Positions 9,328 to 32,000 of a DNA stretch of 32,000 nt are shown here, one piece after another; positions within the stretch are counted from its first letter, which is position 1, and every line of letters starts with the position of its first letter. The position numbers were made by a program, and so were the translations under genes. Source of the DNA: Clostridia bacterium (GTDB lineage Bacteria > Bacillota > Clostridia > UMGS1810). Below the pieces are notes generated by a model. It was given only the letters and a program-made list of their open reading frames with translations. It was not told the origin of the DNA and did not search any database. The stretch is taken from positions 7,587 through 39,586 of the forward strand of contig JAZQDA010000102.1 of the NCBI GenBank assembly GCA_045546535.1, read 5' to 3'.

Positions 9328-10494
9328 TTACTCTATTTTTGTAAGTAAATACTCTGAATCTATGTATTCGAGAGTATATGTCCAGTCAAAACTTTTTTTC
9401 TCAGATGCACCGTCAGCATAATACAAAGTTTCTGCCTCTGTTACATCAATTTTCCATTTTGTGTCAGAAATTTTTGTGATTGATTTTACAGTAAGAGAAT
9501 CAAAACCTTGAGAAATTCCCTGGTCAATACAGGTCTGAACAAGTTTTTTCTGGTCATTATAAAGTTGACCTGCAAGATGGGATTCAACAACTGAAAAATC
9601 TCTGCTGTTTATTGCCATAACAAGGTCTTCAATATATTCAACAAGGATAATTTCTGCTTTTTTAAAACTCATTTCATCGGTATCTTTTGAATTTTCAGAT
9701 TCAAGATACTGTTTAATCTGAGATATATATTCTTCAAGGAGCGATACATCGGAATCGTCAAGATATTTTGTGTCAATGAGTTCTGATTCGGTCAGGGCAT
9801 CTTCGTACTTTTCATTCTTCATAAAGTTTTGCACATTTTCAAAAGTTTTGTATGCAGTTTCATATGAAAGAATTTCGTCGTCAAGACTTTCAACATCTGT
9901 GCGTATTGAATAATCTATGTATTCTATCGGAATTTCATCAAAAAGTTCTCTGGCTTCTTCAAATTTTTTGCTTTGAAGTTTTTTCAGCGCTCTGTTATAG
10001 TTGTACACTATTGTGTGCAGTGTTTCTGCCTCGTCATTTTCGGGGTCTGTTTCTAAAACTGCCTTAAAAACAGTTTCAGCCTCGTCATATTCGGCGTTTT
10101 TGAGATTGTCCATACCCTTTTCCATAAGGGTATCAGTATCTTCTTGTTCTAACACGACATCTTCTGCGCCCGGGTTTTCTTCCTCTTTTTTGCCTATGGC
10201 ACCTGATATGAAAAGAGAAACAACAACTAAAACCAAAGAGGTAATAATACATATTAAAACGGTCGGGTTTATACCGTCTTTTTTCTTTTTGCCGGTGGCT
10301 GTTTTCTTCTTGGTGTAGATTGGTTTTGTTTCATTAAACTCTGCCGAATCTGAAACAGGTCTTATTTTCTGCGTATCGCCAAATTCTGTTTTGCTAAAAG
10401 GCGAAATCTGGTCAGAGTCTATTTCGAGTTGGAGTCCGCAGTGGGGACACCATTTTGCTCCGCCGGACTCTTTTTTGCAATTGGGACAAATCAT
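9328..10494 (-). CDS. Zinc-ribbon membrane protein with TPR-like region and TcaA/YvbJ-like extracellular C-terminal domain
   Basis: N-terminal CPNCKK..CPHCG zinc ribbon, one TM helix (VLICIITSLVLVVVSLFISGAI), acidic helical repeats, and a C-terminal NTF2-like segment resembling the TcaA/YvbJ family. RBS GGGGG 7 nt before the ATG. Confidence 0.65.
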   Translation of the reverse strand: MICPNCKKESGGAKWCPHCGLQLEIDSDQISPFSKTEFGDTQKIRPVSDSAEFNETKPIYTKKKTATGKKKKDGINPTVLICIITSLVLVVVSLFISGAIGKKEEENPGAEDVVLEQEDTDTLMEKGMDNLKNAEYDEAETVFKAVLETDPENDEAETLHTIVYNYNRALKKLQSKKFEEARELFDEIPIEYIDYSIRTDVESLDDEILSYETAYKTFENVQNFMKNEKYEDALTESELIDTKYLDDSDVSLLEEYISQIKQYLESENSKDTDEMSFKKAEIILVEYIEDLVMAINSRDFSVVESHLAGQLYNDQKKLVQTCIDQGISQGFDSLTVKSITKISDTKWKIDVTEAETLYYADGASEKKSFDWTYTLEYIDSEYLLTKIE

Positions 10495-11865: not shown

Positions 11866-12132
11866 ACTTTCACGCCTCCTGTCTTCATTATAATTCATTT
11901 TAGCATTTTTTTAAAAAAAAGTCAACAATAACTCTCTTTGCAAAACGCCCCGTTTTCGTATGTTTTTTCACGCAGACAAAGGCTTAAACACAAGAGAAAA
12001 GGCACTTGTGTGCTGTTTTGTTTTTGCCGGTGTTTATAAAAACAGCAAACCGCTTTTCGTATAAAATATAATCAGGGTAACAAAAGGCAGATAAGCAGAT
12101 ATTAACGCATCTGTTTATGTAAAGGAGGAAGT

Positions 12133-13845
12133 ATGAAAGAATCAGAAAACAAAAAACTTTTTCCCATAACGGAAGAAGATGTGCAAAATGCTGCACAGAT
12201 ACTCAGAAAATATAAGCAGGGTAAATCAAATCTTGAGAAAAGGATAATAGAAAACGAAAGATGGTGGAAACTTCAGCACTGGTCAATGATTGGAAAATCC
12301 AATCCGACCGACCCTGAACCTGCGTCTGCATGGCTTTTTAACTGCCTTGCCAATAAACACGCAGACGCTATGGATAATTTCCCCACCCCGTGCGTTTTGC
12401 CCCGTGAAGAAAGGGACTTTAAAAGCGCGGGAATTCTTTCCGAGGTTCTTCCCGTAATCCTTGAGTACAATGATTTTGAAAAGACATATTCGGACGTATG
12501 GTGGTACAAACTCAAAACAGGCACGGGATGCTACGGGGTATTCTGGAATAACTCTCTTCGCTCAGGGCTTGGCGATATCGACATAAAACAGATTGATATT
12601 TTAAATATGTTCTGGGAAAGCGGAATCAAAGATATTCAGGACAGCCGTAATGTCTTTGTTGTCGAACTCGAATCTAACGATGTGATAACAGAGAAGTATC
12701 CTCAAACCTATGGCAGACTTTCGGGTTCAACTCTTGATGTGGCAAGGTATATTTATGATGACACAGTAGACACCGAAGACAAAAGCGCAGTTGTTGACTG
12801 GTACTATAAAAAAAGAGTGGGAAACCGCGAGATTGTGCATTACTGCAAGTTTGTAAACGACATCATTCTCTATTCTTCAGAAAATGACCCTCTTCTTTTT
12901 ACAAGAGGTTTTTACGACCACGGAAAATATCCCTTTGTCTTTGACATTCTCTTTGCCGAAGAAGGAACGCCTTGCGGATTCGGTTATGTAGATGTGATGA
13001 AAAATGCACAGATGTATATTGATAAACTCAATCAGATTATTCTCAAAAACGCCCTTCAATCAGGAAGACGCCGTTTCTTTATCTCTGACAATGCAGGGAT
13101 AAACGAAGAAGAATTTGCCGACTGGTCAAAAGAGTTTGTCCACACCGCAGGAAGTCTTGACGAAAGAAATATAAGGGAAATTCAGGTGTCCCAACTTGAC
13201 GGAAGCGTTGTAGGGCTACTCAATCAAAAAATTGAAGAACTGAAAGAAACTTCAGGAACGCGTGATGTTATGCAGGGCGGAACAGCGGCAGGTGTAACAG
13301 CGGCAAGTGCTATTGCCGCACTTCAGGAACAAGGATCAAAACTTTCAAGGGATATGATAAAAAGTTCCTACAGAGCATTTAGAAAGATAAACTGCTTTGT
13401 AATTGAACTCATACGCCAGTTCTACGATGAACCCAGATGCTTCAGAATAAGCGGAGCACAGTTTTCAAGCATTTCAAAAGGTTCACTCTTTGAAAATTCT
13501 TCACTTTTCGGAGAGCCGATTTTCGACATAGTTGTTTCAAGCGAAAAAGAAAACCCGTTTTCGACTTCAGCGCAAAACGAACTTGCAAAAGAACTCTATA
13601 ACCTTGGTATGTTCAATCCCGAAATGGCAAATCAGGCTTTGGCGTGTCTTGAAATGATGAACTTTGACGGCAAAGAAAAAGTCATGAAAATAATAAAGGA
13701 AAACGCATCGGCAGTTATAACCGAAAATGTCCCGGCTAAAGAAATTAAAGATGGAGAGAATGAGTCTGATATCATAACGGCATACCGCAAAAACCTTCCG
13801 GGCAAAACAACGCTTGAAGAGGCTAAAAGGAGGCTTGGAATATGA
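12133..13845 (+). CDS. Phage portal protein
   Basis: 570 aa with an AAAGGAGG RBS. The size, the N-terminal helical stretch (ILRKYKQGKSNLEKRIIENERWWKLQHW), the central GFYDHGKYPFVF / GFGYVDVM region and the glycine/alanine-rich TSGTRDVMQGGTAAGVTAASAIAALQEQGSKL tunnel-loop-like segment are typical of portals. First gene of the operon. Confidence 0.75.
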   Translation: MKESENKKLFPITEEDVQNAAQILRKYKQGKSNLEKRIIENERWWKLQHWSMIGKSNPTDPEPASAWLFNCLANKHADAMDNFPTPCVLPREERDFKSAGILSEVLPVILEYNDFEKTYSDVWWYKLKTGTGCYGVFWNNSLRSGLGDIDIKQIDILNMFWESGIKDIQDSRNVFVVELESNDVITEKYPQTYGRLSGSTLDVARYIYDDTVDTEDKSAVVDWYYKKRVGNREIVHYCKFVNDIILYSSENDPLLFTRGFYDHGKYPFVFDILFAEEGTPCGFGYVDVMKNAQMYIDKLNQIILKNALQSGRRRFFISDNAGINEEEFADWSKEFVHTAGSLDERNIREIQVSQLDGSVVGLLNQKIEELKETSGTRDVMQGGTAAGVTAASAIAALQEQGSKLSRDMIKSSYRAFRKINCFVIELIRQFYDEPRCFRISGAQFSSISKGSLFENSSLFGEPIFDIVVSSEKENPFSTSAQNELAKELYNLGMFNPEMANQALACLEMMNFDGKEKVMKIIKENASAVITENVPAKEIKDGENESDIITAYRKNLPGKTTLEEAKRRLGI

Positions 13846-14168
13846 CGCAGATTTCAAGGGAAGAAACAAAAGACAAATTATGCCTTACGGTACTTGGGCA
13901 CTGCGACGCAGGAAGAATAAACGGTCTTGACCTTTGTTGCTGTGCGGTTTCAATGCTGGTATTCACTCTTATGGAATCACTTAAAAAACTAAACCTTTCC
14001 TCTCCTGAAATTTCCTATGGCGGAGGCTGGTGTCTTGTGCGTTTTTCAAACAAAAGCAAAGACTACGAAAAGGCAAAAATTATAACAGATACTGTAATGA
14101 CGGGGTTTCTACTACTTGAAAAATCATATCCGTCGAGTGTCTGCATTTTAAAGGAGGCAGAAAAATGA
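13842..14168 (+). CDS. Prp-family (DUF464, ribosomal-processing-type) cysteine protease, phage-borne paralogue
   Basis: 108 aa. LTVLGHCDAGRINGLDLCCCAVSMLVFTL reproduces the Prp GH...D.VCAAVS His/Cys dyad context. The C-terminal ITDTVMTGFLLLEKSYPSSVCI parallels the Prp C-terminal helix/strand. ATGA overlap with the portal stop. Confidence 0.75.
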   Translation: MTQISREETKDKLCLTVLGHCDAGRINGLDLCCCAVSMLVFTLMESLKKLNLSSPEISYGGGWCLVRFSNKSKDYEKAKIITDTVMTGFLLLEKSYPSSVCILKEAEK

Positions 14169-15178
14169 GCGAAGTTAAAGACGGATACTGTATTATTGAC
14201 GCTATGAGCGGAATGGAAGATGCTCATGTTCAGACAAGTCAGTTTACAGATAATTTTGATAAAATCAAATTCCTTTTGGGCAAAAACTTTGATGACTACA
14301 CAATGATGATTATAACCGATATAAGCGGTCACGTGGAAGTTATACATACCGACGGGGCATCTCTTATAAAAGAAACGGACGAATCGGGCGAAACAAGTCT
14401 TTTATGGAATCTTGGCGTAAATGTTACTTCACAGACGGGAGTTGTGATATATCAGATTGCTGCCTATAAAAAAAGTGGCGACACTATTGAAAAAACCTGG
14501 TATTCCAAAGAGGGAAGACTTATAGTAACTGAGAGCATAAGCACAAATGAATACAGTGCAAACCTTTTGGGTGCATATCCAAATCTTCTCACAAGACTTT
14601 TAGCAGAGGCTGAAGATATAAAAACCGAACTTGACAAGGTGAATTTTGACAAGGTTTCAAAAGAAGAGGGAAAAGGGCTTTCGCATAACGACTATACTGA
14701 TGAAGAAAAAGAAAAACTTTTATCTGTTTCAGTCGGCGCCGAGGTAAATGTTCAGCCTGACTGGGCAGAGTCAGATGATGAGAGCGATGCCTTTATAAAA
14801 AATAAACCAACTCTTTCAAAAGTGAGTTTTTCAGGGTCTTTTTCTGACCTCAAAGATAAGCCCGTAATTGATACAGAGTTTAAAAATAACAGTCAAAATG
14901 CCCAGAGCGGAATTGCGGTGGCACAGGCGATTGCAGATATGGTAAACTCTGCTCCCGAAACTTTAGATACTCTTTCAGAACTTGCAAAAGCACTCGGCAA
15001 CGACCCGAATTTTGCAACAACCATTATGAACTTAATGGGCAAAAAGTCAGATAAAACCGAAACTGAAAATCTCATAGACGGCGTGACAGAAGAAATGAAC
15101 ACAAAAATCGGCGACATCGAAACTGCACTTGACCAAATACTTAAACTTGATAACGAACTTCTGGGGGTGAGTGAATGA
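14165..15178 (+). CDS. Tail fibre protein with BppU_N-like N-terminal domain
   Basis: The N-terminal ~120 aa resemble the BppU N domain (GVVIYQIAAYKKSGDTIEKTWYSKEGRLIVTESI). Classic fibre motifs are present: NVQPDWAESDDESDAFIKNKP and APETLDTLSELAKALGNDPNFA. Coiled-coil C-terminus. ATGA coupling at both ends. Confidence 0.8.
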   Translation: MSEVKDGYCIIDAMSGMEDAHVQTSQFTDNFDKIKFLLGKNFDDYTMMIITDISGHVEVIHTDGASLIKETDESGETSLLWNLGVNVTSQTGVVIYQIAAYKKSGDTIEKTWYSKEGRLIVTESISTNEYSANLLGAYPNLLTRLLAEAEDIKTELDKVNFDKVSKEEGKGLSHNDYTDEEKEKLLSVSVGAEVNVQPDWAESDDESDAFIKNKPTLSKVSFSGSFSDLKDKPVIDTEFKNNSQNAQSGIAVAQAIADMVNSAPETLDTLSELAKALGNDPNFATTIMNLMGKKSDKTETENLIDGVTEEMNTKIGDIETALDQILKLDNELLGVSE

Positions 15179-16533
15179 ACCTTTCAGAAAAACTCATAAC
15201 AATTGCAGATAACCGAAAAAAATTATATGAATCGGGTAAAAATTCAATGGTTGACCCTGAAAAAATCATATTCAAAACGGAATCTGGCAGACTCTTTTCA
15301 ATGAATGATGTATCTGAAATTGCGCACGATGTCAATATAAAAACCGAAAACGGCGCAAATGTTACTGTGTGCGCAAGAAACTTATTCAGAGAAGATTTGA
15401 TGGAGGGTACAACCAGCGTAAATGGTATTACTTGTGAGTATGAGGGCGATGGAATTTTCCATATATATGGTTCGTATGAAAATGCAGCAACAACGCATAA
15501 AGACTTCTATATTCACGCAAAAACATTAAATATACCGATAGATGTGAACTCGTCTTACTCTGTTTATTCAAAAATTATTGAAGGTGACACTTCGAATAAT
15601 ACTTATTCTTATTTATTAACAAGTAACGGAACGCAAACAAAGAATTGGATTTGTGCGACTGTAAAACCATCAACAGAAGTTGGAAGCACGGTTGTTACGT
15701 CTGGCAAAGGCGGATTGTATCAGACAGATGCAAAAAGATTAGAACGATTTCATTTTTATATCAGAGTCGAAGCAAATTCAACGCTGAATGTAAATATCAG
15801 GATTCAGGTTTGGTTATCGAAAGGCAGTTTGCCCGATTACGAAAAATATATCGGTACAACTTACACGGCAGACGCCGATGGTAATGTTTACGGAGTAAAA
15901 TCCTTATCACCTTATATGAATATATACACTTCTTCTGATGAAGATATGGTTGTTTCCTATCACAAGTCATATGGTATGCAGACTGAACGTGAAAGGTTTT
16001 GGGAAACATTTCAAAACAAAGGAACCAGAAACCAATATCCTTATGCTTTTTATGGTTCTTGGTGGACAGATAATATATACAATCCTATATATAATATTGT
16101 ACATAGCGATGGTGTTTCAGTTTTTCAAAATTCAAGCATTACCGACACAAAGGTAACAATCGATTTGAGCAATTTTTCGGGCAGTATGACTGCAATGTTC
16201 AGCGGTTGCCGTGCACTTAAAAAAATAAGAAAACTGATTGTTCATGAAGCGCTCGGATATGAAAGGTGTTTTGTAAACGCTGATAAACTCACAGACGTTG
16301 AATTTGAAGGAGTTATCGGCAAAAGCATAAGTTTTGCCCAGTCCCCGCTAGGTATTGAAAGTCTTAGAAATATAATACTTCATCTTAAAGACTACAGCGG
16401 AGGAAGCACAGAAACACATATTCTCACTTTAAAAGATGGGTGCAAAACTCTTTTAGAAGAGAATGGAAACACATCGCCGAACGGGAACCTTTGGACAGAA
16501 TATGTTTCTGACCTTGGCTGGACTCTTGCATAG
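15175..16533 (+). CDS. Receptor-binding-like tail protein with C-terminal BspA-type leucine-rich repeats
   Basis: The N-terminus LSEKLITIADNRKKLYESGKN is typical of prophage fibre-associated proteins. The C-terminal FSGCRALKKI / CFVNADKLTDVEF repeats are LRR-like. Location directly after the fibre gene. Confidence 0.6.
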   Translation: MNLSEKLITIADNRKKLYESGKNSMVDPEKIIFKTESGRLFSMNDVSEIAHDVNIKTENGANVTVCARNLFREDLMEGTTSVNGITCEYEGDGIFHIYGSYENAATTHKDFYIHAKTLNIPIDVNSSYSVYSKIIEGDTSNNTYSYLLTSNGTQTKNWICATVKPSTEVGSTVVTSGKGGLYQTDAKRLERFHFYIRVEANSTLNVNIRIQVWLSKGSLPDYEKYIGTTYTADADGNVYGVKSLSPYMNIYTSSDEDMVVSYHKSYGMQTERERFWETFQNKGTRNQYPYAFYGSWWTDNIYNPIYNIVHSDGVSVFQNSSITDTKVTIDLSNFSGSMTAMFSGCRALKKIRKLIVHEALGYERCFVNADKLTDVEFEGVIGKSISFAQSPLGIESLRNIILHLKDYSGGSTETHILTLKDGCKTLLEENGNTSPNGNLWTEYVSDLGWTLA

Positions 16534-16546
16534 AAAGGAGAATTTT

Positions 16547-16831
16547 ATGTATACAGATATTGAAACTTTAATAGAAAATGCAACAATGAAAAAATATTTT
16601 AATGGTGACGGCAAATTCACAGCGTACATAATTGAGCCTTACCCTGACTTTATGCTCCATATAAACTCAAGGGACGAGATTGTTTTTGACCCTCAGACCG
16701 ATATGGCGACAGGTGAGATAATAAAAGGTTACACAAAAGGCGAAGTGAGACTTTGCGCCGATTATGATTTTTCAGTAAATCCTCTTGATATTTATGCAGT
16801 CCCGACAGTTTGTGAGGAGGAAAAGATTTGA
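16547..16831 (+). CDS. Hypothetical phage protein (94 aa)
   Basis: ATG at 16547 with an AAAGGAG RBS. Its stop overlaps the next start (TTGA). No recognisable motif. Confidence 0.55.
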   Translation: MYTDIETLIENATMKKYFNGDGKFTAYIIEPYPDFMLHINSRDEIVFDPQTDMATGEIIKGYTKGEVRLCADYDFSVNPLDIYAVPTVCEEEKI

Positions 16832-17136
16832 AAAACATTTTAGACTACATAATTTATGCATCAACAGTTATCGGTGCGATAGGGGCAGTGTTTTTGGCAC
16901 TCAGAAAATGTCTTTCATCTCTTTTTGACCCCATATGCAAAAAACTTAATTTTATGGACAAGCGTGAGTGCCGTCATTTTCTGGTAAGTTTTCTGTGCGA
17001 TGTAGAAAACGGAATCGAAAAAGACGAAGTTCAATGGAAACTTGCCCACGATACTTATGATTATTACAGAGATACTTTAAAGGAAAATTCATACGTTCAC
17101 GACAAATGGGAAAGGGTGGTAAATAATGAAGATTGA
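16828..17136 (+). CDS. N-terminally membrane-anchored small protein of the lysis cassette
   Basis: TTG start 7 nt after GAGGAGG. One TM helix (IIYASTVIGAIGAVFLAL) and a soluble tail. Located directly upstream of the holin. Confidence 0.55.
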   Translation: MKNILDYIIYASTVIGAIGAVFLALRKCLSSLFDPICKKLNFMDKRECRHFLVSFLCDVENGIEKDEVQWKLAHDTYDYYRDTLKENSYVHDKWERVVNNED

Positions 17137-17440
17137 TATAAGTTTAGTTTCTTTAATTGTTGCTCTTCTTGGCTTCGGAGTCAACATAATTGTTCAGATT
17201 ACAAAAGAATTTATGCCGATTCCTACAAAACTCTGGACAATTATAGTTTCAGCATCGCTTTGCATCATATGTTACATATCGGGTGTAAGCGAGGGCTTTT
17301 TTGAGGCGGGAATATCGGGGGCGCTTGGGTGTATTGTTTCGTCTTTTTTCATCGCATACTGCGCGATGTACGGCTTTGATACATTCTCAGAACTTTTTGA
17401 AAGATTTAAAGGCGGTGAAAATATAAATGACGATAACTGA
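17126..17440 (+). CDS. Putative holin
   Basis: 104 aa with three predicted TM helices and a charged C-terminal tail (FKGGENINDDN). GGGTGGT RBS. Immediately precedes the amidase and overlaps it. Confidence 0.7.
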   Translation: MKIDISLVSLIVALLGFGVNIIVQITKEFMPIPTKLWTIIVSASLCIICYISGVSEGFFEAGISGALGCIVSSFFIAYCAMYGFDTFSELFERFKGGENINDDN

Positions 17441-18158
17441 AAAATATTATAATTTTTCTTCGCCTCTTGAGAAAAGAAAAAACACCGATTTTATAATACT
17501 TCATCACGCTGCGGCAAAGGTGTGCAGCGCAGATGATATTCACAGAATCCACCAGAGCAACGGGTGGTCGGGCATAGGCTATCACTATTTTGTGAGAAAG
17601 GACGGCAGAGTCTTCCAGGGGCGTCCCGTAGGGGAAATCGGCGCTCACTGTATAGGCAAAAACTCTGAGAGCGTCGGAGTATGCTTTGAGGGTAATTTCG
17701 AAAAAGAAGAAATGCCGGTCACGCAGTTTGAAGCAGGAAAAGAACTTATAGCCTACCTTAAAGGCATATACAAAAATGCAAAAGTGAAAAAACATTCGGA
17801 CTTTAACGCAACCGTATGTCCCGGGGAAAATTTCCCTTTTGATAAAATATCTTCACTGGTGTATGAAGACGAATCTGACATCATAAGCATTCTTTCCAGA
17901 AGGGGTATTATGACAGATATACCTCTGTGGAAAGAAAAATGCAAGGGAAAGACAAATGCCTACTATCTTGCAAAAAACATAGCCAATAAAACAACTGATA
18001 CCAAATTGAGAGAAAAGCCTCTGGAAAGTGTAAATGATATTGTGTGGGAACTTTGTGAGAGAAAAATAATAACCGACAAAAATCTTTGGCTTTCTCTTTT
18101 TGAAAAGGACAAAAACCTTTACTGGCTTGGGTTTAAGGCAGTAAATCAGACGAAATGA
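17427..18158 (+). CDS. N-acetylmuramoyl-L-alanine amidase endolysin (Amidase_2/PGRP fold) with C-terminal wall-binding-like domain
   Basis: ILHHAA, GWSGIGYHYFVRKDGRVFQGRP, GAHCIGKNSESVGVCFEGNF and VCPGENFP are the T7-lysozyme-type zinc amidase motifs. Confidence 0.9.
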   Translation: MTITEKYYNFSSPLEKRKNTDFIILHHAAAKVCSADDIHRIHQSNGWSGIGYHYFVRKDGRVFQGRPVGEIGAHCIGKNSESVGVCFEGNFEKEEMPVTQFEAGKELIAYLKGIYKNAKVKKHSDFNATVCPGENFPFDKISSLVYEDESDIISILSRRGIMTDIPLWKEKCKGKTNAYYLAKNIANKTTDTKLREKPLESVNDIVWELCERKIITDKNLWLSLFEKDKNLYWLGFKAVNQTK

Positions 18159-18167
18159 GGCGAGATT

Positions 18168-18344
18168 ATGCAACTAAAAACAGACAGGATAAATTTTGAC
18201 GGAACTGACTCTGAAAAAATAAACCGTCTTATAAACTATACTGAAACTTTGAGAGATGAGATTGATTTCAGGCTCTCATCGCTCAAAGAAAAGCAGGACG
18301 CAATATATGAAATACTAAGAAAGATACAGGGAGGTGCAAAATGA
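18168..18344 (+). CDS. Small coiled-coil phage protein (58 aa, below the ORF-track cutoff)
   Basis: ATG at 18168 lies 7 nt after GAGG. Translation: MQLKTDRINFDGTDSEKINRLINYTETLRDEIDFRLSSLKEKQDAIYEILRKIQGGAK. The stop overlaps the next start as ATGA. Confidence 0.55.
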   Translation: MQLKTDRINFDGTDSEKINRLINYTETLRDEIDFRLSSLKEKQDAIYEILRKIQGGAK

Positions 18345-18697
18345 GGATAACAGATGTTATAACTCAGTGTGACAGGATAAAACCGAATGAATATACATAT
18401 GACGATAAAAGACGGTGGGTTGAAAAAGTCGAAACTGATATCAGACGCTTTGCAGACAGGTTTTCACTCGAAAAAGCAGATATGAGTTTCAAAAAGGAAG
18501 AAGACCCCCAACTTTTTCTCGGCACAGAGTATATGGATATTTACATTTATTATCTTATATCTATGATAGACCTTTCCAATCAGGAATATGCCCTCTACAA
18601 CAACAGTTCTGCATTTTTCAATTCACTTTTTTTAAAATGGCAGAAAAATCACAGAAGAGAAAATATCCCTGAAAAATCAGCGCAAATTAAAGTATAA
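18341..18697 (+). CDS. Hypothetical phage structural protein, possible head-tail adaptor (positional guess only)
   Basis: 118 aa. Sits directly before the nozzle-like gene, in the position of a podovirus adaptor. Motif YYLISMIDLSNQEYALYNNSSAFFNSLF. Confidence 0.5.
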   Translation: MRITDVITQCDRIKPNEYTYDDKRRWVEKVETDIRRFADRFSLEKADMSFKKEEDPQLFLGTEYMDIYIYYLISMIDLSNQEYALYNNSSAFFNSLFLKWQKNHRRENIPEKSAQIKV

Positions 18698-18709
18698 GGA
18701 GGTGGAAAA

Positions 18710-20512
18710 ATGCTTCCTGTAATGAGGACAAATATAAATTTTTACGAAAAAGATATTAAAGTTTTCGGCGGTATAAACACACAGGAGAATTCTTCTCTGG
18801 GTCAACTTTTAATCAGTGAGAACATATCTTCACAAAATTATCCTTTTTTGTCTGCAAGGAAAAAGCGTACTATAGTTGCGCAAACCGACAAGATAATTAA
18901 CTCGGTGTGGGGATATGGCGGGATTATATATACCTCGCATAGTGAAGACGGCAAAAAAATATTTTTTACCTTTGGGGAGAAAGAGTATGAATTCACAACT
19001 TATTCATCGTCAAATGATTTTACTTTAAAGAGGAAATTTGCCTGTGTCAAAGATGCAATTTTGATAATCCCTGATAATGTCATATTTGACACAAGCAAAA
19101 AAACTTTCAAAAAAGCATCTTTTCAAAAAACGCAGACCCCCGATACTGCCAAAGCAAAATTCAAAACTGAAACAGGAGGAGCGTCAAATTCAGATGTATC
19201 TTTAAGTGAGTATGTAGGGAGAATATATGACAATAAGATAAGTGCAAGACAAATCTCTTATACTTATTCTGGTAACAGCCGTGTTTTCTACTTTGCATCA
19301 TTCCCTGATGAGTTAAAAGAAGGTGATGTTATTGAAATAAAAATGTCAGCATATGCAAATTCATATGAAAGTGCAACTCAATATCAGGAGTGTATGCTGA
19401 AATTAGCAGCAGGAACAACTGCCAAAATTAAAAGCATAACAAAGGTTTCGCACACAACTCCTTCGGGAAAAGTAACTGATAATACAGAACTTATCTTCGA
19501 GGACGGTGCGTTTGATACTAGCGGATGCGGGACAATATTTATAAAAAACATCACAGTTACGAGAAAACTGCCTGACTTAAAGCATATTTGTTCATTCCAG
19601 AACAGAGTCTGGGGAATATCAGGCAAAAGTGTGTATGCTTCAAAACTCGGCGACGCATCGGAATGGAACGATTTTACCATTGATGAATACGGAACTTTGC
19701 CATACGCTTCTTTTAATGCTGAAGCATCAACAGAGGGCGATTTTACTGCAATAGTGCCTTTTGGCAACTACATATATGCATTTAAGGAAAATTCTATAAA
19801 CAAAATCTACGGCGACTCACCCGATGAATATAAGTTCAATACTCAAGTTTGTCAGGGTGTAAGGACAGGGTCGGGCGAAAGCATGTGCATATGCGACGGA
19901 AGTTTAATATATCCGTCAAATGACGGAATATACCGTTACTACAGTGATTATCCGAGAAAAATCTCAGATGATGTCGGTGATTTGGGCGAGGTTTTATCGG
20001 GTGCTTCTACCGAGCGCTATTGCTATTTCCTTTGCCGAAAAGAAGACAGGCTTTGCCTTTGGGTATATGATATCAGATACGGCATATGGCATATGGAAAC
20101 CGCATCTGAAAAAAGCCTGATGCTCTTCTCTTACAAAAATAAAGTCTATCTTACATCGCAGACTCAAATTCTTTGCCTAACAGACGACTCTCTTTCAGAA
20201 AAAAATGAGAAGATGGTAAATTGGAAATTCCGTATGCGTATTGATGATAAGTTTTTCAATAAAAAAGGCTATGGCAAACTTATGGTCAGATATTCTCTTT
20301 CAAAAAATGCATCATTTACCGTCCGTGCATTTTATGATGACGGTGGGAGAGGTGCAATATGCGGAGCGTGTTATGACGAGGCAGAGTCAAGCCTTGCGAC
20401 AATTTCTCTGCCCATAAAAAGATGCAACTGGTTTGAACTTGAATTTTCAGGGTTTGGTGATTTTGTCCTGAAAGGCATTAAACTCAAGTTCTACCGCGGA
20501 AGCGAAATATAA
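18710..20512 (+). CDS. Podovirus nozzle / tail tubular protein B-like protein (T7 gp12-like pattern)
   Basis: 600 aa. The N-terminus KVFGGINTQENS...NYPFLSARKKR and the internal SFQNRVWGISGKSVYASK resemble, from memory, T7 gp12 GGISQQP...GLQKRP and FFRNRLGFLSG. Beta-propeller-like repeats (YIYAFKENSINKIYG, DGSLIYPSNDGIYRY). Confidence 0.6.
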   Translation: MLPVMRTNINFYEKDIKVFGGINTQENSSLGQLLISENISSQNYPFLSARKKRTIVAQTDKIINSVWGYGGIIYTSHSEDGKKIFFTFGEKEYEFTTYSSSNDFTLKRKFACVKDAILIIPDNVIFDTSKKTFKKASFQKTQTPDTAKAKFKTETGGASNSDVSLSEYVGRIYDNKISARQISYTYSGNSRVFYFASFPDELKEGDVIEIKMSAYANSYESATQYQECMLKLAAGTTAKIKSITKVSHTTPSGKVTDNTELIFEDGAFDTSGCGTIFIKNITVTRKLPDLKHICSFQNRVWGISGKSVYASKLGDASEWNDFTIDEYGTLPYASFNAEASTEGDFTAIVPFGNYIYAFKENSINKIYGDSPDEYKFNTQVCQGVRTGSGESMCICDGSLIYPSNDGIYRYYSDYPRKISDDVGDLGEVLSGASTERYCYFLCRKEDRLCLWVYDIRYGIWHMETASEKSLMLFSYKNKVYLTSQTQILCLTDDSLSEKNEKMVNWKFRMRIDDKFFNKKGYGKLMVRYSLSKNASFTVRAFYDDGGRGAICGACYDEAESSLATISLPIKRCNWFELEFSGFGDFVLKGIKLKFYRGSEI

Positions 20513-20526
20513 AGGAGATGATAAAA

Positions 20527-21483
20527 ATGTCAAGTTATTTTACAAAGAAAAAACTGATTGACGATAATTCCGACCTCTATATCTCGGAATATGATAAAAG
20601 TCTTCCCTCGAAAGACCTTGAGGGAATAATAAGTGCAAAGAGAAGTTATAACGAAGCACAGAAAACGGGCAATACCTATGCAATGCAGGAGGCAAATAAA
20701 AGAGCAAACGACATAAGAAAGACAAGCGGAAGTTATACGGGCGGACTGGACGGTTCCGAATATAAACGCACCCCGAAAGATTATGAAATAAGAGTTTACG
20801 AAGGTTTTTCTTCGCCTTATTCAAAAGAGAAAAAAAGGGTTCTTAGTAAAATTAATTCTATGAATGATTTTTCATATAACCCTGAAGATGACCCGATTTA
20901 TGCAATCTATGCAAATCTTTACAGGTCGCTCGGTGAAGATGCTTATGACAGAGCACTTTCGCAAAATGCTATGCGTACAGGCGGTGTTGCAAGTACAAGT
21001 GCACAGTCTCTTGCTATGCAGGCACAGAATAAGTATAACTCAATGCTAACTGCAAAAATTCCTGAACTCTACGCCCAAGCGTATGACAAATATCTGAATG
21101 AATACGAAAGACTCTACAGAGAACTTGAAATGTATGAGGACTTTGAAAACACAGAGTACAAACGCTACCGCGACAGAGTGTCCGACTGGGAAAACGACAG
21201 AGACTATCAGAGCAAAAGAGATAAGGAAACAAGAGATGAACTTTGGAATCAATATGAGTTTAACTCAAATCTTGAATACGACCTTGCAAAAGACGAAGAA
21301 GAAATGTCGTTTAAAAAAGAACGGGCAGATATGGAAGATGCAAAGTGGGGCATGGAATTTGACCAAAAATCCTATATGGATGCGCTAAATGCCACTATGG
21401 ATCTTGTAAAAATTATTGTTGATGAGCCGGATATTTCAGCAGCGCTTATTCAGGAACTTTATGACAGTTTGAAACTCGACTGA
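20527..21483 (+). CDS. Highly charged helical phage protein (possible internal virion/ejection protein, speculative)
   Basis: ATG at 20527 lies 9 nt after AAGGAG; the track start at 20518 abuts the RBS. Contains AKRSYNEAQKTGNTYAMQEANKRANDIRKTSGSYTGGLDGS and the DPIYAIYANLYRSLGEDAYDRAL...TGGVASTSAQ motifs seen in Firmicutes phage structural modules. Confidence 0.6.
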   Translation: MSSYFTKKKLIDDNSDLYISEYDKSLPSKDLEGIISAKRSYNEAQKTGNTYAMQEANKRANDIRKTSGSYTGGLDGSEYKRTPKDYEIRVYEGFSSPYSKEKKRVLSKINSMNDFSYNPEDDPIYAIYANLYRSLGEDAYDRALSQNAMRTGGVASTSAQSLAMQAQNKYNSMLTAKIPELYAQAYDKYLNEYERLYRELEMYEDFENTEYKRYRDRVSDWENDRDYQSKRDKETRDELWNQYEFNSNLEYDLAKDEEEMSFKKERADMEDAKWGMEFDQKSYMDALNATMDLVKIIVDEPDISAALIQELYDSLKLD

Positions 21484-21489
21484 TAAAAA

Positions 21490-21680
21490 GGGCGTCCTCA
21501 CTTGGGGATGAATCGGTTTTGACTTGAAATTTTCCGTTAATACGGAGCAAAAAAATCCCGTAACGCGACAGCATTACGGGATTTTTTTGTCTTGTCTTAT
21601 TCGTAAAATCTCTGACTCAAAACTGCAAAGCACCTCAAAAGCATAATTTTGGGGCGAATAATCCCTAAGCGAGGACGCCC
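21490..21680. repeat. 191 bp element bounded by 19 bp imperfect terminal inverted repeats
   Basis: GGGCGTCCTCACTTGGGGAT (21490-21509) versus ATCCCTAAGCGAGGACGCCC (21661-21680): 19 of 20 positions pair, one of them a G.U, with one A/C mismatch. Further pairing is possible between GTTTTGA (21516-21522) and TCAAAAC (21617-21623). Confidence 0.7.
21549..21588. terminator. Bidirectional rho-independent terminator ending the phage-derived operon
   Basis: AAAAAAA-TCCCGTAA-(10 nt loop)-TTACGGGA-TTTTTTT. Confidence 0.8.
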
Positions 21681-28208: not shown

Positions 28209-28859
28209 TTACTTAATGATGCTACATATATCAACTTTCTTAAACTCAATATCATCTTCTCTCATAGTGCAAAGAGAAATCGCATAACCATCTTTGTCAA
28301 ACTCTTTTATAAAACACTCGGGTGCTTCCTTTATATGTACAACGGGCAAGAGCGAAACCGAGAAATCTTTAAATGATGCAAGTCCTTTACCTGTCATTTT
28401 TGCATATGCTTCTTTTATAGTCCACATTCTGAAAAAAGCGTCTGACTTTTCAATGTCAGAGTATTTTGAGAATTCTTCTTTTTCGTTTTCGGCAAAAAAT
28501 CTTTCTATAATAGAGGGATTAAAAAATGATTTTTTTTCTGCATCAATGCCGATTTCTGTATCGGAGACTGCGCAGATTGCAAGTGAATCTGAATGGGAGA
28601 GTGAAAAATGAATATCAAAATTTTTAATATACGGTTTTTTATTCTCATCTTCGCAAAGGAGCGCAGAGCCAAAAGAGAGATTTTTTCTTTTAAGGCACTC
28701 GCCTAGCATAAGCGACGCACCGACAGATAACATCTTCGCTTTTTTCAACTTTAGTTTTTCTGCCTTAATCACTCTTTCTTCAGGTAGTGCGGAAAGTGCC
28801 TTATTGTATAAAGCGTTATCTGAAAGGGGAGACACATCAGTATATAAAACAGTAATCAT
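28209..28859 (-). CDS. 4'-phosphopantetheinyl transferase, Sfp type
   Basis: ATG at 28859 follows a GGAGGTG RBS (the track ORF starts 30 nt earlier). Motifs GIDAEK and WTIKEAYAKMTGKGL. Confidence 0.85.
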   Translation of the reverse strand: MITVLYTDVSPLSDNALYNKALSALPEERVIKAEKLKLKKAKMLSVGASLMLGECLKRKNLSFGSALLCEDENKKPYIKNFDIHFSLSHSDSLAICAVSDTEIGIDAEKKSFFNPSIIERFFAENEKEEFSKYSDIEKSDAFFRMWTIKEAYAKMTGKGLASFKDFSVSLLPVVHIKEAPECFIKEFDKDGYAISLCTMREDDIEFKKVDICSIIK

Positions 28860-28937
28860 TTTTTCACCTCCGAATTGCAAATTTATCAAAAATAATTATA
28901 CCGTAATACAGTATAAGTGAATAAGAATTTCATGACT

Positions 28938-28966
28938 ATTTTAACACAAATTTCATCTGAAATCAA
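28938..28966 (-). promoter_or_regulatory. Likely PPTase promoter
   Basis: On the minus strand: TTGATT, 17 nt spacer, TGtTAAAAT extended -10. Confidence 0.5.
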
Positions 28967-29027
28967 ACCTTAAATTTTGCAAAATACGACACAAAAAGCA
29001 ATTTTTGACAAGAAAAAAAGACCCGAT

Positions 29028-29056
29028 ATTTCCACATATCCACATGGTTATCCACA
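29028..29056 (+). promoter_or_regulatory. Cluster of three same-orientation DnaA boxes
   Basis: ATTTCCACA (29028-29036, 7/9), ATATCCACA (29036-29044, 8/9) and TTATCCACA (29048-29056, 9/9), compared with the TTATCCACA consensus. Confidence 0.6.
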
Positions 29057-29362
29057 CGCACGTTTCCCATAAAAGAGCGGTTTCGGGGGTTTTTCACATC
29101 AAAAATTATGAGTGGGAGATGGCTCGTTTGAATTCGAATTTTACCCAAAAAATAAGTAAAATTTTTGGAAGTTTTCAAAAAAGAATTTTTTTGCGTCTTC
29201 GTTGTAACAAAAAGGGCATAACAAGGCTCAAACCCAGTAGTTTCAAGGCTTTGGCATGTTTGCATAATTTTTAAAAATTTTGCATAAATGTGTCGAAAAC
29301 CTACTGCGGTGTGCCTTAGAGGAATGTATGAAAAACTTTTTGAAATTTTTTCAAAAAAACTC

Positions 29363-29417
29363 TTGACAAAACGAAAGTTTAGTTGTATAATGCACGTGAA
29401 AGTCAAAGAAAGTCAAA
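29363..29417 (+). promoter_or_regulatory. ctsR operon promoter with CtsR operator
   Basis: TTGACA (29363-29368), 17 nt spacer, TATAAT (29386-29391). The heptad direct repeat AGTCAAA-GAA-AGTCAAA (29401-29417) matches the CtsR box (A/GGTCAAAnAnA/GGTCAAA). Confidence 0.85.
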
Positions 29418-29485
29418 GTCTAAAAATTTCGAAAAAGTCAGAAAAACATAAAATAGCCTTAATTTTATAGGAGGAATGGTGGAAA

Positions 29486-29935
29486 ATGAAAATAAGCGAT
29501 ACTATAGAAACTTTCATACGCGAACTTTTTGAAGACGAAAACAGTATAGAATTAAAACGAAATGAACTTGCGGGATATTTCAACTGCGTACCCAGTCAGA
29601 TTAACTATGTTATATCTACCCGCTTTACTACCGAGAGGGGATATATAGTAGAAAGCCGTCGCGGAGGCGGGGGCCATATAAAAATCACAAGAGTGGCGGT
29701 AAACAGAAACGATGCAATCCGTCATATCCTTTCAAACATTGGTGATTCTGTTGATGTTTTAACCGTAGAGGCTATAATAGATAACCTTTATTCAAGCCAG
29801 ACTATAAATGCCGACCAGGCAAAACTGATGCTTTCTGCGTGTTCAAATAACGCTCTCTCGCCGATAGCGGACGGTCTTTTAAAGAACAGAGTAAGAGCAA
29901 GTATATTTAAAAATTTATTGTTAATGTTTATATAA
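29486..29935 (+). CDS. ctsR: Class III stress gene repressor CtsR
   Basis: CVPSQINYVISTRFTTERGYIVESRRGGGGHIKI is the CtsR hallmark. First gene of the ctsR-mcsA-mcsB-clpC operon. Confidence 0.95.
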   Translation: MKISDTIETFIRELFEDENSIELKRNELAGYFNCVPSQINYVISTRFTTERGYIVESRRGGGGHIKITRVAVNRNDAIRHILSNIGDSVDVLTVEAIIDNLYSSQTINADQAKLMLSACSNNALSPIADGLLKNRVRASIFKNLLLMFI

Positions 29936-29947
29936 GGAGGGAAAAAT

Positions 29948-30445
29948 ATGTTATGTTCAAACTGCGGTATAAATGATGCTAACTTTCACTATAAACACAT
30001 ATCAGGCGGAAAAATGACTCAGGTTCACCTTTGCTCTGATTGTGCAAAGAGACTCGGATATATAAAAGAAAACGAAAGCATTTTTTCTCTTCCTAACTTT
30101 TTCGGTGATTTTTTATCTACACCCAAAACAATTGAAACAAGGGAAAAATGTCCGTCGTGCGGTACAAGTTTTGATACAGTAAGGCGTACAGGATTTGTCG
30201 GGTGCGATAAGTGCTATGAAACATTTAAAAATCTTATAGAAGCGATGCTTGGCAAAATTCAGCCGTCTACATCGCATAAGGCAAATCAAAAAGCAACCAT
30301 TAAAGAAAATATAGAAAAAAGCCCTCTCGAAAAATATAAAGAAGAACTTAAAACGGCTATAGAAAAAGAAAATTACGAACAGGCGGCAGTTTTAAGAGAT
30401 AAGATAAAGGCTCTTGAATCGGAAGGAGTTGAAAACGATGGCTAA
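29948..30445 (+). CDS. mcsA: McsA, zinc-finger activator of the protein arginine kinase (UVR domain protein)
   Basis: Two CxxC pairs near each of CSNCG..CSDC and CPSCG..CDKC, plus a C-terminal UVR motif (ENYEQAAVLRDKIKALE). Confidence 0.9.
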   Translation: MLCSNCGINDANFHYKHISGGKMTQVHLCSDCAKRLGYIKENESIFSLPNFFGDFLSTPKTIETREKCPSCGTSFDTVRRTGFVGCDKCYETFKNLIEAMLGKIQPSTSHKANQKATIKENIEKSPLEKYKEELKTAIEKENYEQAAVLRDKIKALESEGVENDG

Positions 30446-31454
30446 GTGGTTTGAAGAAAACGGTCTGGATTCTGATGTAGTACTCAGTACCCGAATCCGT
30501 CTTGCAAGAAATTTAAAAGGCATACCCTATCCAAGTAAAATGACCCCCGATGACGCTTTAAAAGTTATTTCAATCGTAGAGGGCGCTCTGGAAGAAATGA
30601 ACTATACTTTTACAAAAATAGACGTTTCAACTCTTGGCGATGCAGAGAAGCAGAAACTTGTTGAACAGCGCTATATAAGTCCTGATTTTGCATCAACCAA
30701 ACTCCCCTGTGCTGCATATGTGAGCGAAGATGAAAACATAAGTATTATGGTAAATGAAGAAGACCATATCCGCATTCAGTGCATATGCTCAGGTCTTTCA
30801 GACAAAAAAGCGTATGAACTTATATCAAAAGTAGACTCATATCTTGGAGAGCGCCTTGAATATGCTGTGCACGAAAAATACGGACATCTCACCTCGTGCC
30901 TTACAAACCTCGGCACAGGAATGAGAGTTTCGTATATGCTTCATCTTCCTGCAATGGTTATGTCGGGAGTTTTAGAAAATGTTTTTGACGCAATAAGAAA
31001 ACTCGGCGTAACTGTAAGGGGAATGTACGGAGAGGGCACTAAATCATACGGCAATCTTTTCCAAATCTCCAATCAGACAACGCTTGGCAGATGCGAAACG
31101 GAAATAATCGATGCAATAAAGGAAACCCTTTCAAGTGTTGTTTCTAAGGAAAGGGAGATAAGAGGTGTACTTTTAAAGAAAAAGGGCGTTATATTAGAAG
31201 ATAAAATAATGCGTTCGTATTCAATCTTAAAATCTGCCCGTATAATGCAGTCAAAAGAAATGATGGAAAGGCTTTCAGACCTTCGTCTGGGTCTTGGCCT
31301 GGGTATAATTGACGGGGTTGAATACAAAGCACTTGGCAAAATAATGATATCGGCATCTCCTGCGAACTTAATCGCTGAAAACGCAGATGAAAATGCGTTT
31401 GACAGAGATGTGCGCAGAGCAAAACTTATAAGAGATGCACTCGAGGAGGAATAA
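30438..31454 (+). CDS. mcsB: Protein arginine kinase McsB
   Basis: ATP:guanido phosphotransferase motifs (NEEDHIRIQ, CLTNLGTGMR, GEGT). ATG at 30438 (MAKWFEENG) overlaps the mcsA stop by 8 nt. Confidence 0.9.
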   Translation: MAKWFEENGLDSDVVLSTRIRLARNLKGIPYPSKMTPDDALKVISIVEGALEEMNYTFTKIDVSTLGDAEKQKLVEQRYISPDFASTKLPCAAYVSEDENISIMVNEEDHIRIQCICSGLSDKKAYELISKVDSYLGERLEYAVHEKYGHLTSCLTNLGTGMRVSYMLHLPAMVMSGVLENVFDAIRKLGVTVRGMYGEGTKSYGNLFQISNQTTLGRCETEIIDAIKETLSSVVSKEREIRGVLLKKKGVILEDKIMRSYSILKSARIMQSKEMMERLSDLRLGLGLGIIDGVEYKALGKIMISASPANLIAENADENAFDRDVRRAKLIRDALEEE

Positions 31455-31456
31455 CT

Positions 31457-32000
31457 ATGGAATCAAGATTTACAGATAAATCAAGGTCGGCACTGAGATT
31501 TGCCCACGACATTTCGCAAGAACTTGGTTACGGTTTTGTCGGAAGCGAACATATAGTGGCAGGTATACTTAAAGAGGGCAGTTCCCCCGCTTCATCAGCA
31601 CTCGAAAAAAGCGGAGTGAATTATGAAGAATTTGTGGCAGAAATTGTAAAAGTTTCACCCCCCGATGAGACGGTAAATATCATAGGCTCATCACTTCCCC
31701 TGACCCCGCGATGCAAAACAATACTCGAGATGAGTTTTAACGAAGCAAAAAAACTCGGCTCTCTTCTCATTTCGCCCGAACATATTATAGTTGCAGTTTT
31801 AAGAGAGGGACACAGCGTTGGAGCAAGAATACTTTCAAAGTTTGTTACCGATGTAAATGAACTTGTAAGCGATATGTTTTCATCAGATGAAATTCACAAT
31901 AACTCTCATACGCAAAACTCGGGTTCAAAAGATGTGCCCAAGAGCCTTTCGCAGTTCGGTCAGGACCTTACAAAGATGGCAAAAGACGGTAAATTCGACC
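31457..32000 (+). CDS. clpC: ATP-dependent Clp protease ATP-binding subunit ClpC, N-terminal part (runs off the right edge)
   Basis: The two Clp_N repeats are present (FTDKSRSALRFAHDISQELGYGFVGSEHIVAGIL; TPRCKTILEMSFNEAKKLGSLLISPEHIIVAVL). Operon position after mcsB. Confidence 0.9.
   Translation, partial: MESRFTDKSRSALRFAHDISQELGYGFVGSEHIVAGILKEGSSPASSALEKSGVNYEEFVAEIVKVSPPDETVNIIGSSLPLTPRCKTILEMSFNEAKKLGSLLISPEHIIVAVLREGHSVGARILSKFVTDVNELVSDMFSSDEIHNNSHTQNSGSKDVPKSLSQFGQDLTKMAKDGKFD

Follow-up and report, generated by a model that had tools for sequence, protein, structure and literature searches.

A podovirus-derived portal, tail and lysis operon without capsid genes in gut Clostridia, probably one locus of a split gene transfer agent-like particle system

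We analysed a 32-kb stretch of DNA (the window; 32,000 nucleotides) from a Clostridia bacterium (GenBank assembly GCA_045546535.1, contig JAZQDA010000102.1, positions 7,587 to 39,586 of the forward strand), in which a 9.4-kb operon at 12133-21483 encodes a podovirus-type portal, a short tail and a lysis cassette. Judging from gene content and synteny, this operon is likely to be the portal-tail-lysis locus of a split, domesticated and vertically inherited particle system, which would be derived from a podovirus and resemble a gene transfer agent (GTA). As in known GTAs and other viriforms, a phage-derived set of structural genes that lacks functions for replication, lysogeny and integration is fixed in the chromosome, and the same site is occupied in many species. 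An earlier note, made from the window alone, had offered a split GTA-like element as one of several explanations. That explanation fits the finding that a relative (locus L217) carries scaffold, major capsid protein (MCP) and phrog_15239-like genes at a second site, and the finding that a sister clade has its genes dispersed over at least three loci.

The operon consists of 12 co-directional open reading frames (ORFs), which are listed here with their best profile matches.

12133 to 13845, + strand: portal of the P22/SU10 type, 570 aa (PF16510, E 5.9e-26; PF23899; phrog_156, E 5.3e-75)
13842 to 14168, + strand: Prp-type cysteine protease, 108 aa (PF04327, E 2.5e-11; phrog_4478)
14165 to 15178, + strand: tail fibre, 337 aa (24 PHROG families, mostly tail fibre or tail protein, at residues 212-319)
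15175 to 16533, + strand: variable receptor-binding-like protein (w04), 452 aa (no Pfam or PHROG match)
16547 to 16831, + strand (alternative start at 16463): small conserved protein (w05), 94 aa (orthologues in L005, L009, L011 and L014)
16828 to 17136, + strand: small protein with one N-terminal hydrophobic segment, 102 aa (phrog_13632, E 1e-6)
17126 to 17440, + strand: holin-like membrane protein with three hydrophobic segments, 104 aa (phrog_18218, E 9e-11)
17427 to 18158, + strand: endolysin, N-acetylmuramoyl-L-alanine amidase (Amidase_2), 243 aa (PF01510, E 3e-20; phrog_35436, E 1e-37)
18168 to 18344, + strand: 58-aa protein, first gene of a conserved tail-hub unit, always before the adaptor candidate
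18341 to 18697, + strand: head-to-tail adaptor candidate, 118 aa (phrog_12105, E 9e-23)
18710 to 20512, + strand: tail nozzle with the T7 gp12/P22 gp10 fold, 600 aa (phrog_511, E 1e-34)
20518 to 21483, + strand: charged tail-hub protein rich in Tyr, Asp and Arg, 321 aa (homologous to a 341-aa protein of phage contig L001)

The genes are tightly packed, with overlaps of 4 nt at 13842, 14165, 15175, 16828 and 18341, overlaps of 11 and 14 nt at 17126 and 17427, and gaps of 5-13 nt elsewhere. ORFs on the minus strand are short (at most 129 aa) and all lie within + strand genes, which leaves no spare coding space. Both points agree with the earlier description of the operon. Searches of the 12 ORFs against Pfam and PHROG profiles recovered no capsid, scaffold, terminase, polymerase, repressor or recombinase family, and profile searches of the ORFs and their flanks found no integration, replication or lysogeny gene. 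For the unassigned ORFs, Pfam matches at E <= 5 were noise only. The operon is thus, as first described, an intact portal, short-tail and lysis set without head or packaging genes, placed between core genes. Against PF16510, the portal scored 91.6 bits (cut-off 26.1) over residues 82-533, as a P22-like portal does, and a sequence search of the PDB with the portal returned no match. Exact-match look-ups with this portal and with a database protein 100% identical to it returned no indexed contig.

Whether such a module recurs in relatives had been raised in the earlier note; it is present in 17 or more further genomes of gut Clostridia. Group 1 (the window, L003-L015, L017 and L216-L218) has the full module of 11-13 genes, which adjoins WG-repeat, TcaA-like, ligA and trmO genes wherever the upstream flank was retrieved. 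Group 2 (L016, L018-L025, L058 and L214) has a portal, a small membrane protein and a CHAP lysin, and group 3 (L210-L212) has the module without fibre and receptor-binding protein (RBP) genes at a different chromosomal site. Loci L023 and L215 encode a portal, Prp and a short protein, followed in L215 by an M15 lysin, beside sbcDC. Portals in the capsid-less loci first fetched are 64-77% identical to that of the window (58-61% for L214 and L215), and among species-representative genomes none of the portals in this range has terL or an MCP gene alongside. Portals from genome and viral loci that bear terL and MCP genes are at most 60% identical, and those from faecal phage contigs and 80 IMG/VR loci at most 58%. 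All 70 of the IMG/VR loci long enough to judge have terL, portal, scaffold and MCP genes, their MCPs belong to the N4-gp56 family, and the phage gene order is terL-portal-(Prp)-scaffold-MCP-(phrog_15239)-phrog_12105-nozzle-p341. A neighbour-joining tree built from 166 portals groups the 28 capsid-less loci included in it as a single clade, which contains no phage. At 90% identity, at least 120 clusters of the protein database belong to this clade, which inhabits ruminant, rabbit and human-associated gut Clostridia.

The module is inherited vertically under purifying selection. Portal identity follows ligA identity across eight genomes (r = 0.83), and the ratio of nonsynonymous to synonymous substitution rates (dN/dS) is 0.06-0.09 for the portal, solitary group-2 portals included, 0.08-0.27 for Prp, approximately 0.18 for the adaptor candidate and approximately 0.14 for the nozzle. 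At a given portal identity, nozzles are 38-49% identical within group 1 versus 52-57% in phage pairs; the nozzle is thus less conserved in group 1 than in phages, and constraint on the portal has not relaxed. Every complete copy has intact ORFs, with no pseudogenisation, and no relative carries a full prophage at the site. The earlier note was correct that this is not a decaying stump, and intact ORFs with low dN/dS do not fit a remnant, which would be marked by pseudogenes, patchy distribution and relaxed selection.

The second gene of the operon, which the earlier note had taken for a possible adaptor, was overlooked as a Prp-type cysteine protease. This predicted protease scored 44.1 bits against PF04327 (cut-off 27), and its catalytic GH...DLCCCxVS motif is invariant among 16 orthologues. 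In related phages, a gene of the Prp family lies between the portal and the scaffold and MCP genes, and the MCPs of relatives start with the Prp-type cleavage motif (K)LNLQLFA. No such motif occurs in any frame of the window. A catalytically intact Prp without a substrate motif in the window is a clue that a Prp-processed capsid protein is supplied in trans.

A candidate for a capsid protein of this kind is found at L217, a group-1 locus with a portal 77% identical to that of the window. Head genes lie there 7.3 kb past the module on the opposite strand, after a 107-aa ORF, ctsR-mcsA-mcsB-clpC and a transporter gene. They are as follows.

L217, opposite strand to the module: phrog_15239-like gene, 94 aa
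L217: MCP, 322 aa (PF25209; E 8e-112 to a phage MCP), with the N-terminus MILDLRLFDA
L217: scaffold gene (E 9e-15), incomplete at the edge of the retrieved sequence

In phages, precisely this block lies between Prp and the tail genes. The block in L217 stops where the hub unit of the module would start, its GC and GC3 equal those of core genes, and the MCP appears from its N-terminus to bear a Prp site. Among viruses, phages such as L226 have the MCPs closest to that of L217 (70% identical), and their late operon reads terL-portal-106aa-scaffold-MCP-15239-...-w04-like-w05-like-...-holin-amidase-adaptor-nozzle. The L226 order equals the odd order of the window, with lysis genes in mid-operon, plus the scaffold-MCP-15239 block. 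MCP and scaffold genes are absent from the 32-kb window. Because the window and L217 share the ctsR-mcsA-mcsB-clpC synteny, a head locus is predicted approximately 4 kb beyond the right edge of the window, after clpC. A look-up with the CtsR of the window returned only contigs of at most 5.9 kb, all of which end in clpC. A search with an MCP profile gave more than 8000 matches, and among the 120 best listed none came from the relevant genomes and none was more than 60% identical to the L217 MCP. The L217 MCP and the portal showed no correlation in a co-phylogeny test, which was uninformative. One IMG/VR locus with an MCP match and no portal (L224) was set aside as an ordinary phage, in which the scaffold gene is preceded by a gene of 2893 aa.

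The same genes are spread over at least three loci in a sister clade, under one promoter motif. Searching with the nozzle uncovered a second nozzle clade of 29-33% identity. In the metagenome-assembled genome JAZURE01, a solitary portal (L019) lies among core genes on contig 59, and hub genes in the order 58aa-113aa-nozzle-333aa (L163) lie on contig 64, between Ddl/Mur-ligase genes and other core genes. A strongly conserved, promoter-like motif of 34 nt, GTAGGCGAAA-N10-AAAYG-N3-TAAAAT, precedes scattered loci of portal, hub and winged helix-turn-helix (wHTH) genes. In the form GTAGNCGAAA-N10-AAAYR-N3-TAHAAT, the motif occurs once in each of 12 portal or hub loci and nowhere else among 164 loci, and a leader hairpin and AAGACATCTT, in either orientation, often come after it there. 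The sites are as follows.

L016, L018-L025 and L058: motif upstream of the portal gene
L163, 9471-9504, and L164, 9411-9444: motif at the hub loci
L166, L176, L188, L189, L174, L180 and L206: motif at further loci

Scanning metagenomes for the motif added three hub loci and one portal locus, as well as three loci in which a small winged-helix protein comes first. The solitary winged-helix genes behind the motif are these.

L174, 2645-3067: winged-helix gene
L180, from 1766: winged-helix gene
L206, from 1709: winged-helix gene

Their products are 140-192 aa long and give sub-threshold matches to MarR, GntR and DnaD_N, and homologues lie upstream of the terminase and portal region in the phage-type loci L117, L127 and L054. 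The winged-helix protein is a candidate for an autoregulated late activator retained by the host. Neither the window nor the group-1 loci contain the motif, and among 2.9 million viral contigs it is essentially absent (one match). Since portal and hub loci lie apart and yet share one motif, the system can be split into co-regulated pieces, and from its distribution the motif looks like that of a dedicated regulon of a dismantled phage.

Taken together, these results lead us to a model in which the two loci would be co-expressed and would build one particle. An inducing signal would cause an activator-dependent promoter to fire, and the portal from the module would nucleate procapsids of scaffold and MCP from the other locus. 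Prp would then trim the MCP leader, DNA would be packaged if a terminase is present elsewhere, and the adaptor, nozzle, hub protein and fibres would assemble at the portal vertex. Finally, holin and amidase would lyse the producer and free short-tailed particles, for which the variable tips of fibre and RBP would pick the recipient cells. We infer each of these steps, from co-expression and portal-nucleated assembly through MCP processing and packaging to particle release.

Several findings weigh against a split particle system. The head locus is seen in only one group-1 genome (L217), where the retrieved stretch ends in the scaffold gene; no MCP gene lies within approximately 9 kb downstream of the module in L216 or L218; and the window ends before the predicted head site. 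The metagenome scan for the sister-clade motif recovered portal, hub and regulator loci and no head locus. Neither terL nor terS was found in any capsid-less locus, and no terminase of the system was found anywhere. Furthermore, the closest phage relatives of the L217 MCP differ from those of the portal, and a common origin of the two loci is thus not supported by phylogeny.

These points leave room for an autonomous device without a capsid, in which headless short-tail complexes ('podo-tailocins') would be released by their own lysis cassette and act on other cells. Approximately 30 capsid-less loci (groups 1-3, L214 and L215) have flanks without a head or packaging gene, with L217 as the sole exception, and the motif regulon of the sister clade points the same way. 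Like tailocins (R and F pyocins, diffocin, monocin), the module is chromosomal, has no capsid genes at its locus, carries a lysis cassette in every capsid-less locus and has hypervariable receptor-binding tips in the C-terminus of the fibre and the RBP-like protein. However, tailocins lack a portal and descend from long tails that comprise a tube, a tape measure, a baseplate and, for the contractile R type, also a sheath, whereas profile searches of the module matched no sheath, tube or tape-measure protein and found a portal and a podovirus nozzle instead. The portal is the most conserved gene of the set, and the only roles of portals known to us (capsid assembly, DNA packaging and tail attachment) are all played in a capsid. 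The intact active site of Prp without a substrate in the locus and the complementary scaffold-MCP-15239 block supplied in trans in L217 also disfavour such a device, as do the lack of any encoded killing function (sheath, pore-former or toxin) and the complete absence of fibre genes from group 3. A literature search for podovirus-derived tailocins found none. We consider podo-tailocins distinctly unlikely. It is unlikely, to a slightly lesser degree, that some lineages are without any capsid or terminase, such that the portal-nozzle channel and lysis cassette were co-opted for a capsid-independent job and the L217 capsid genes are an unrelated remnant. That job may be a headless podovirus-derived bacteriocin or an abortive-infection system with the portal as a decoy. 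The candidates are groups 2 and 3, which have only a portal, a lysin and the 58aa-adaptor-nozzle-hub unit, with a dedicated wHTH regulator in group 2. A function without a capsid is improbable for the window and somewhat less so for groups 2 and 3; if true, it would be the first podovirus-derived machine of this kind.

Alternatively, the module could act on infecting or co-resident phages of the family, through capsid piracy, as a helper-dependent supplier of tail and portal, or, as an anti-phage defence, through a decoy portal and premature lysis. The same habitats harbour abundant related phages whose MCPs are of the N4-gp56 type and processed by Prp, the regulator of the sister clade is homologous to a gene upstream of the terminase and portal region in phage-type loci, which gives room for cross-activation, and groups 2 and 3 have no fibre genes at the locus. 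However, the module has no integrase, replication, packaging-redirection or attachment-site (att) feature, its chromosomal position is stable over deep divergence, and the sister-clade motif is nearly absent from viral contigs. In addition, L217 has its own host-like capsid genes, and group-1 fibres keep diversifying, which a defence role would not need. We give a role against phages little credence. A mobile satellite, which the earlier note had listed, fails on every hallmark, since no integrase, replication module, packaging redirection or mobility function is encoded and the chromosomal context is stable. Its further suggestion of a recent clean deletion, which would have left an inert prophage remnant that persists by accident, takes up the observation that an L226-type late operon, once stripped of one block and of all that precedes the portal, has the gene order of the module. 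Recurrence across many species refutes it: ORFs are intact and dN/dS is low in 17 or more further group-1 loci, each from a different genome, the capsid-less portals form a single clade of many clusters, GC matches the host and no relative has the full prophage at the site. An inert remnant is therefore extremely improbable.

The closest counterpart among described systems is FpGTA of Faecalibacterium prausnitzii, a podovirus-like GTA with its genes in two operons that are separated by 125 kb (PMC12946183, Nat Commun 2026). Like the module, FpGTA is chromosomal, podovirus-derived, split over separate operons and free of replication and lysogeny genes. The two share the P22-type portal, Prp, phrog_12105, phrog_511 nozzle and p341-like families, both have a set of fibre, RBP, holin and endolysin genes, and both hosts are gut Oscillospirales. 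A Faecalibacterium locus (L077) with the order terL-portal-Prp-scaffold-MCP-15239-adaptor-nozzle-p341 and a portal 52% identical to that of the window probably corresponds to FpGTA operon I, as judged from gene order. The cut falls elsewhere, however. FpGTA keeps terS, terL, portal, scaffold and MCP together in operon I and the fibre and lysis genes in operon II, whereas in the module the portal is kept beside the genes for tail and lysis and the scaffold-MCP-15239 block is separated, and sister lineages of the module are fragmented further under a dedicated promoter motif. Alphaproteobacterial GTAs of the RcGTA type are likewise domesticated, vertically inherited structural sets with dispersed, co-regulated accessory loci and release by lysis. 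They differ from the module in being siphovirus-like, with terminase, portal, protease and MCP contiguous in a head-tail cluster, and there is no sequence relationship.

Every module protein of more than 100 aa has a homologue in podophages of gut Clostridia with N4-gp56-type MCPs (such as IMG/VR L226 and faecal contig MT835662), with weak similarity for the RBP-like protein, and L226 has its late genes in the same order. Unlike the module, these phages have terS/terL and the scaffold-MCP-15239 block in line, genomes of approximately 40 kb with replication genes, and portals at most 60% identical to that of the window. The module further resembles the P22 and T7 tail machines in having a portal, adaptor, nozzle and fibres, with a nozzle of the T7 gp12/P22 gp10 fold. 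It differs in that the nozzle is only 8-12% identical to the matched solved structures and the equivalents of adaptor and needle are candidates.

Podovirus-like GTAs of gut Firmicutes were described only in 2026 and from a single genus, and GTA-type DNA packaging was seen in Oscillospiraceae, Christensenellaceae and Gemmiger without the responsible genes being found (PMC12946183). If our proposal is correct, the locus defines a large second lineage of GTA-like elements, previously unannotated, with at least 120 portal clusters. What is new here is that the particle genes are cut differently, with the portal apart from the capsid genes, and that the sister clade is scattered under a shared promoter and a phage-derived regulator. 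Dispersal of this kind would account for the failure of standard prophage and GTA finders to detect these elements, and it is a plausible reason for GTA-type packaging in taxa without a detectable GTA operon. The promoter motif and the gene set provide a concrete search image, and the series from one to two to three or more loci offers a view of a virus that is dismantled and rewired by its host.

The tail-hub unit is the part of the module for which structure was modelled. The earlier call of a gp12-like nozzle was confirmed by an AlphaFold2 model from a 52-sequence alignment (predicted local distance difference test score, pLDDT, 89.3; predicted TM score 0.85). Foldseek matched this model to 29 podophage tail entries of the PDB, including the PhiM1 nozzle (8vbx, E 3e-18), T7 gp12 and P22 gp10, all with probability 1.00, E values of 3e-18 to 1e-9 and TM scores of approximately 0.5-0.65. 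In L163 and L164, where the sister clade has its hub genes at a locus of their own, the 58-aa gene likewise precedes the adaptor candidate. In phages, the adaptor candidate lies directly upstream of the nozzle and after MCP/phrog_15239, a position that suggests its role. The 321-aa protein comes after the nozzle in phages, in L077 and in the sister-clade hub locus, and is a candidate needle, plug or ejection protein; it has no similarity to the MCP profile. Sequence searches of the PDB with profiles of the nozzle, the hub protein and the adaptor candidate returned no match.

The proteins that would contact recipient cells are highly variable. Fibre orthologues are 319-612 aa long, with the first 300 aa or so alignable and a C-terminus of variable length. 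The product of ORF 15175-16533, for which a receptor-binding role appears probable, shares only its ends with orthologues of 227-281 aa, and its beta-rich insertion of approximately 250 aa (residues 40-290 or so) is absent from all eight orthologues aligned. An earlier call of leucine-rich repeats in this protein found no Pfam support even at E <= 5, comparison with the MCP family profile showed no similarity (hhalign probability 0.4%), and a single-sequence AlphaFold2 model was unusable (pLDDT 38). Phage L226 has a homologue in the same position and, directly after it, a homologue of the 94-aa protein.

In the lysis cassette, orthologues of the 102-aa protein are 45-57% identical, and it is a possible lysis accessory protein because its gene lies upstream of the holin and amidase genes. 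The holin-like gene, for which a holin function is probable, overlaps the amidase start by 14 nt and is kept in groups 1 and 3. In other lineages the lysin at this position is of the CHAP or Peptidase_M15 type. The exchange is seen beside the portal at 17427-18158 in the window, 13044-13760 in L024, 4112-4834 in L214 and 12788-13471 in L215. That the lysin type is swapped while the small membrane proteins persist suggests selection for lysis within the system.

Two regulatory features flank the genes.

12001 to 12132, + strand: leader and promoter region (sequence reading)
21555 to 21590, + strand: intrinsic terminator closing the operon, a hairpin ATCCCGTAA...TTACGGGAT followed by T7 (read directly)

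The leader has an AT-rich -10-like TAAAAT/TATAAT box at approximately 12062-12075 without a recognisable -35, followed by a small hairpin and a ribosome-binding site. A simple promoter scan of its + strand found no sigma-70-type promoter and reported a hairpin at 12001-14, and an Rfam search of the operon and leader found no RNA element. A TAAAAT-type -10 block is common to the upstream regions of orthologues, and the operon promoter probably needs an activator. The divergent intergenic region also holds, at 12001-12024 and upstream of the -10-like box, a hairpin and T-run that resemble a terminator and may be an insulator of the operon or part of the leader. Most upstream regions of orthologues have comparable hairpins followed by T-runs.

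The left flank consists of the core genes trmO and ligA, a TcaA-like gene and a WG-repeat gene, and the right flank of sbcD, sbcC and, further on, ctsR-mcsA-mcsB-clpC.

29486 to 32000, + strand: ctsR-mcsA-mcsB-clpC, host genes outside the element (CtsR Pfam matches), the synteny anchor for the head locus

The window cuts clpC, which starts at 31457, after 544 bases. The GC content of the operon equals that of the flanks, no att-like direct repeats were found flanking the module, and the sole tRNA gene lies 6.5 kb away. The host has spoIIR and is therefore probably a spore-former. In L297 (JAZMWG010000072.1), which has a CtsR identical to that of the window, rplM-rpsI lie upstream of the PPTase gene where the window has tRNA-Met and MatE genes. 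Comparison with window positions 28209-29935 indicates that the stretch from module to ctsR is rearranged even between very close relatives.

Some related loci show further features. At 16741-21764 of L210, after the group-3 module, come a tyrosine-recombinase-like gene and a gene for a protein that exceeds 1200 aa and has LRR_5 and Flg_new domains. The fibre-less modules of L210 and L211 carry two tandem hairpins CAAAGAGTGCGGACTTTG at approximately 9860-9990, between the -10-like box and the ribosome-binding site, which are not present in the window and may form an RNA-level control element of group 3. Locus L079 (8091-21602) is a true prophage with RecE/RecT, a replication initiator, terS and terL, in which a nozzle-like gene of 744 aa and further tail genes come immediately after portal and Prp. 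Scaffold and MCP genes are missing from between them, and capsid genes were not found in the retrieved stretch; head genes may thus be displaced in replicating phages of the family as well.

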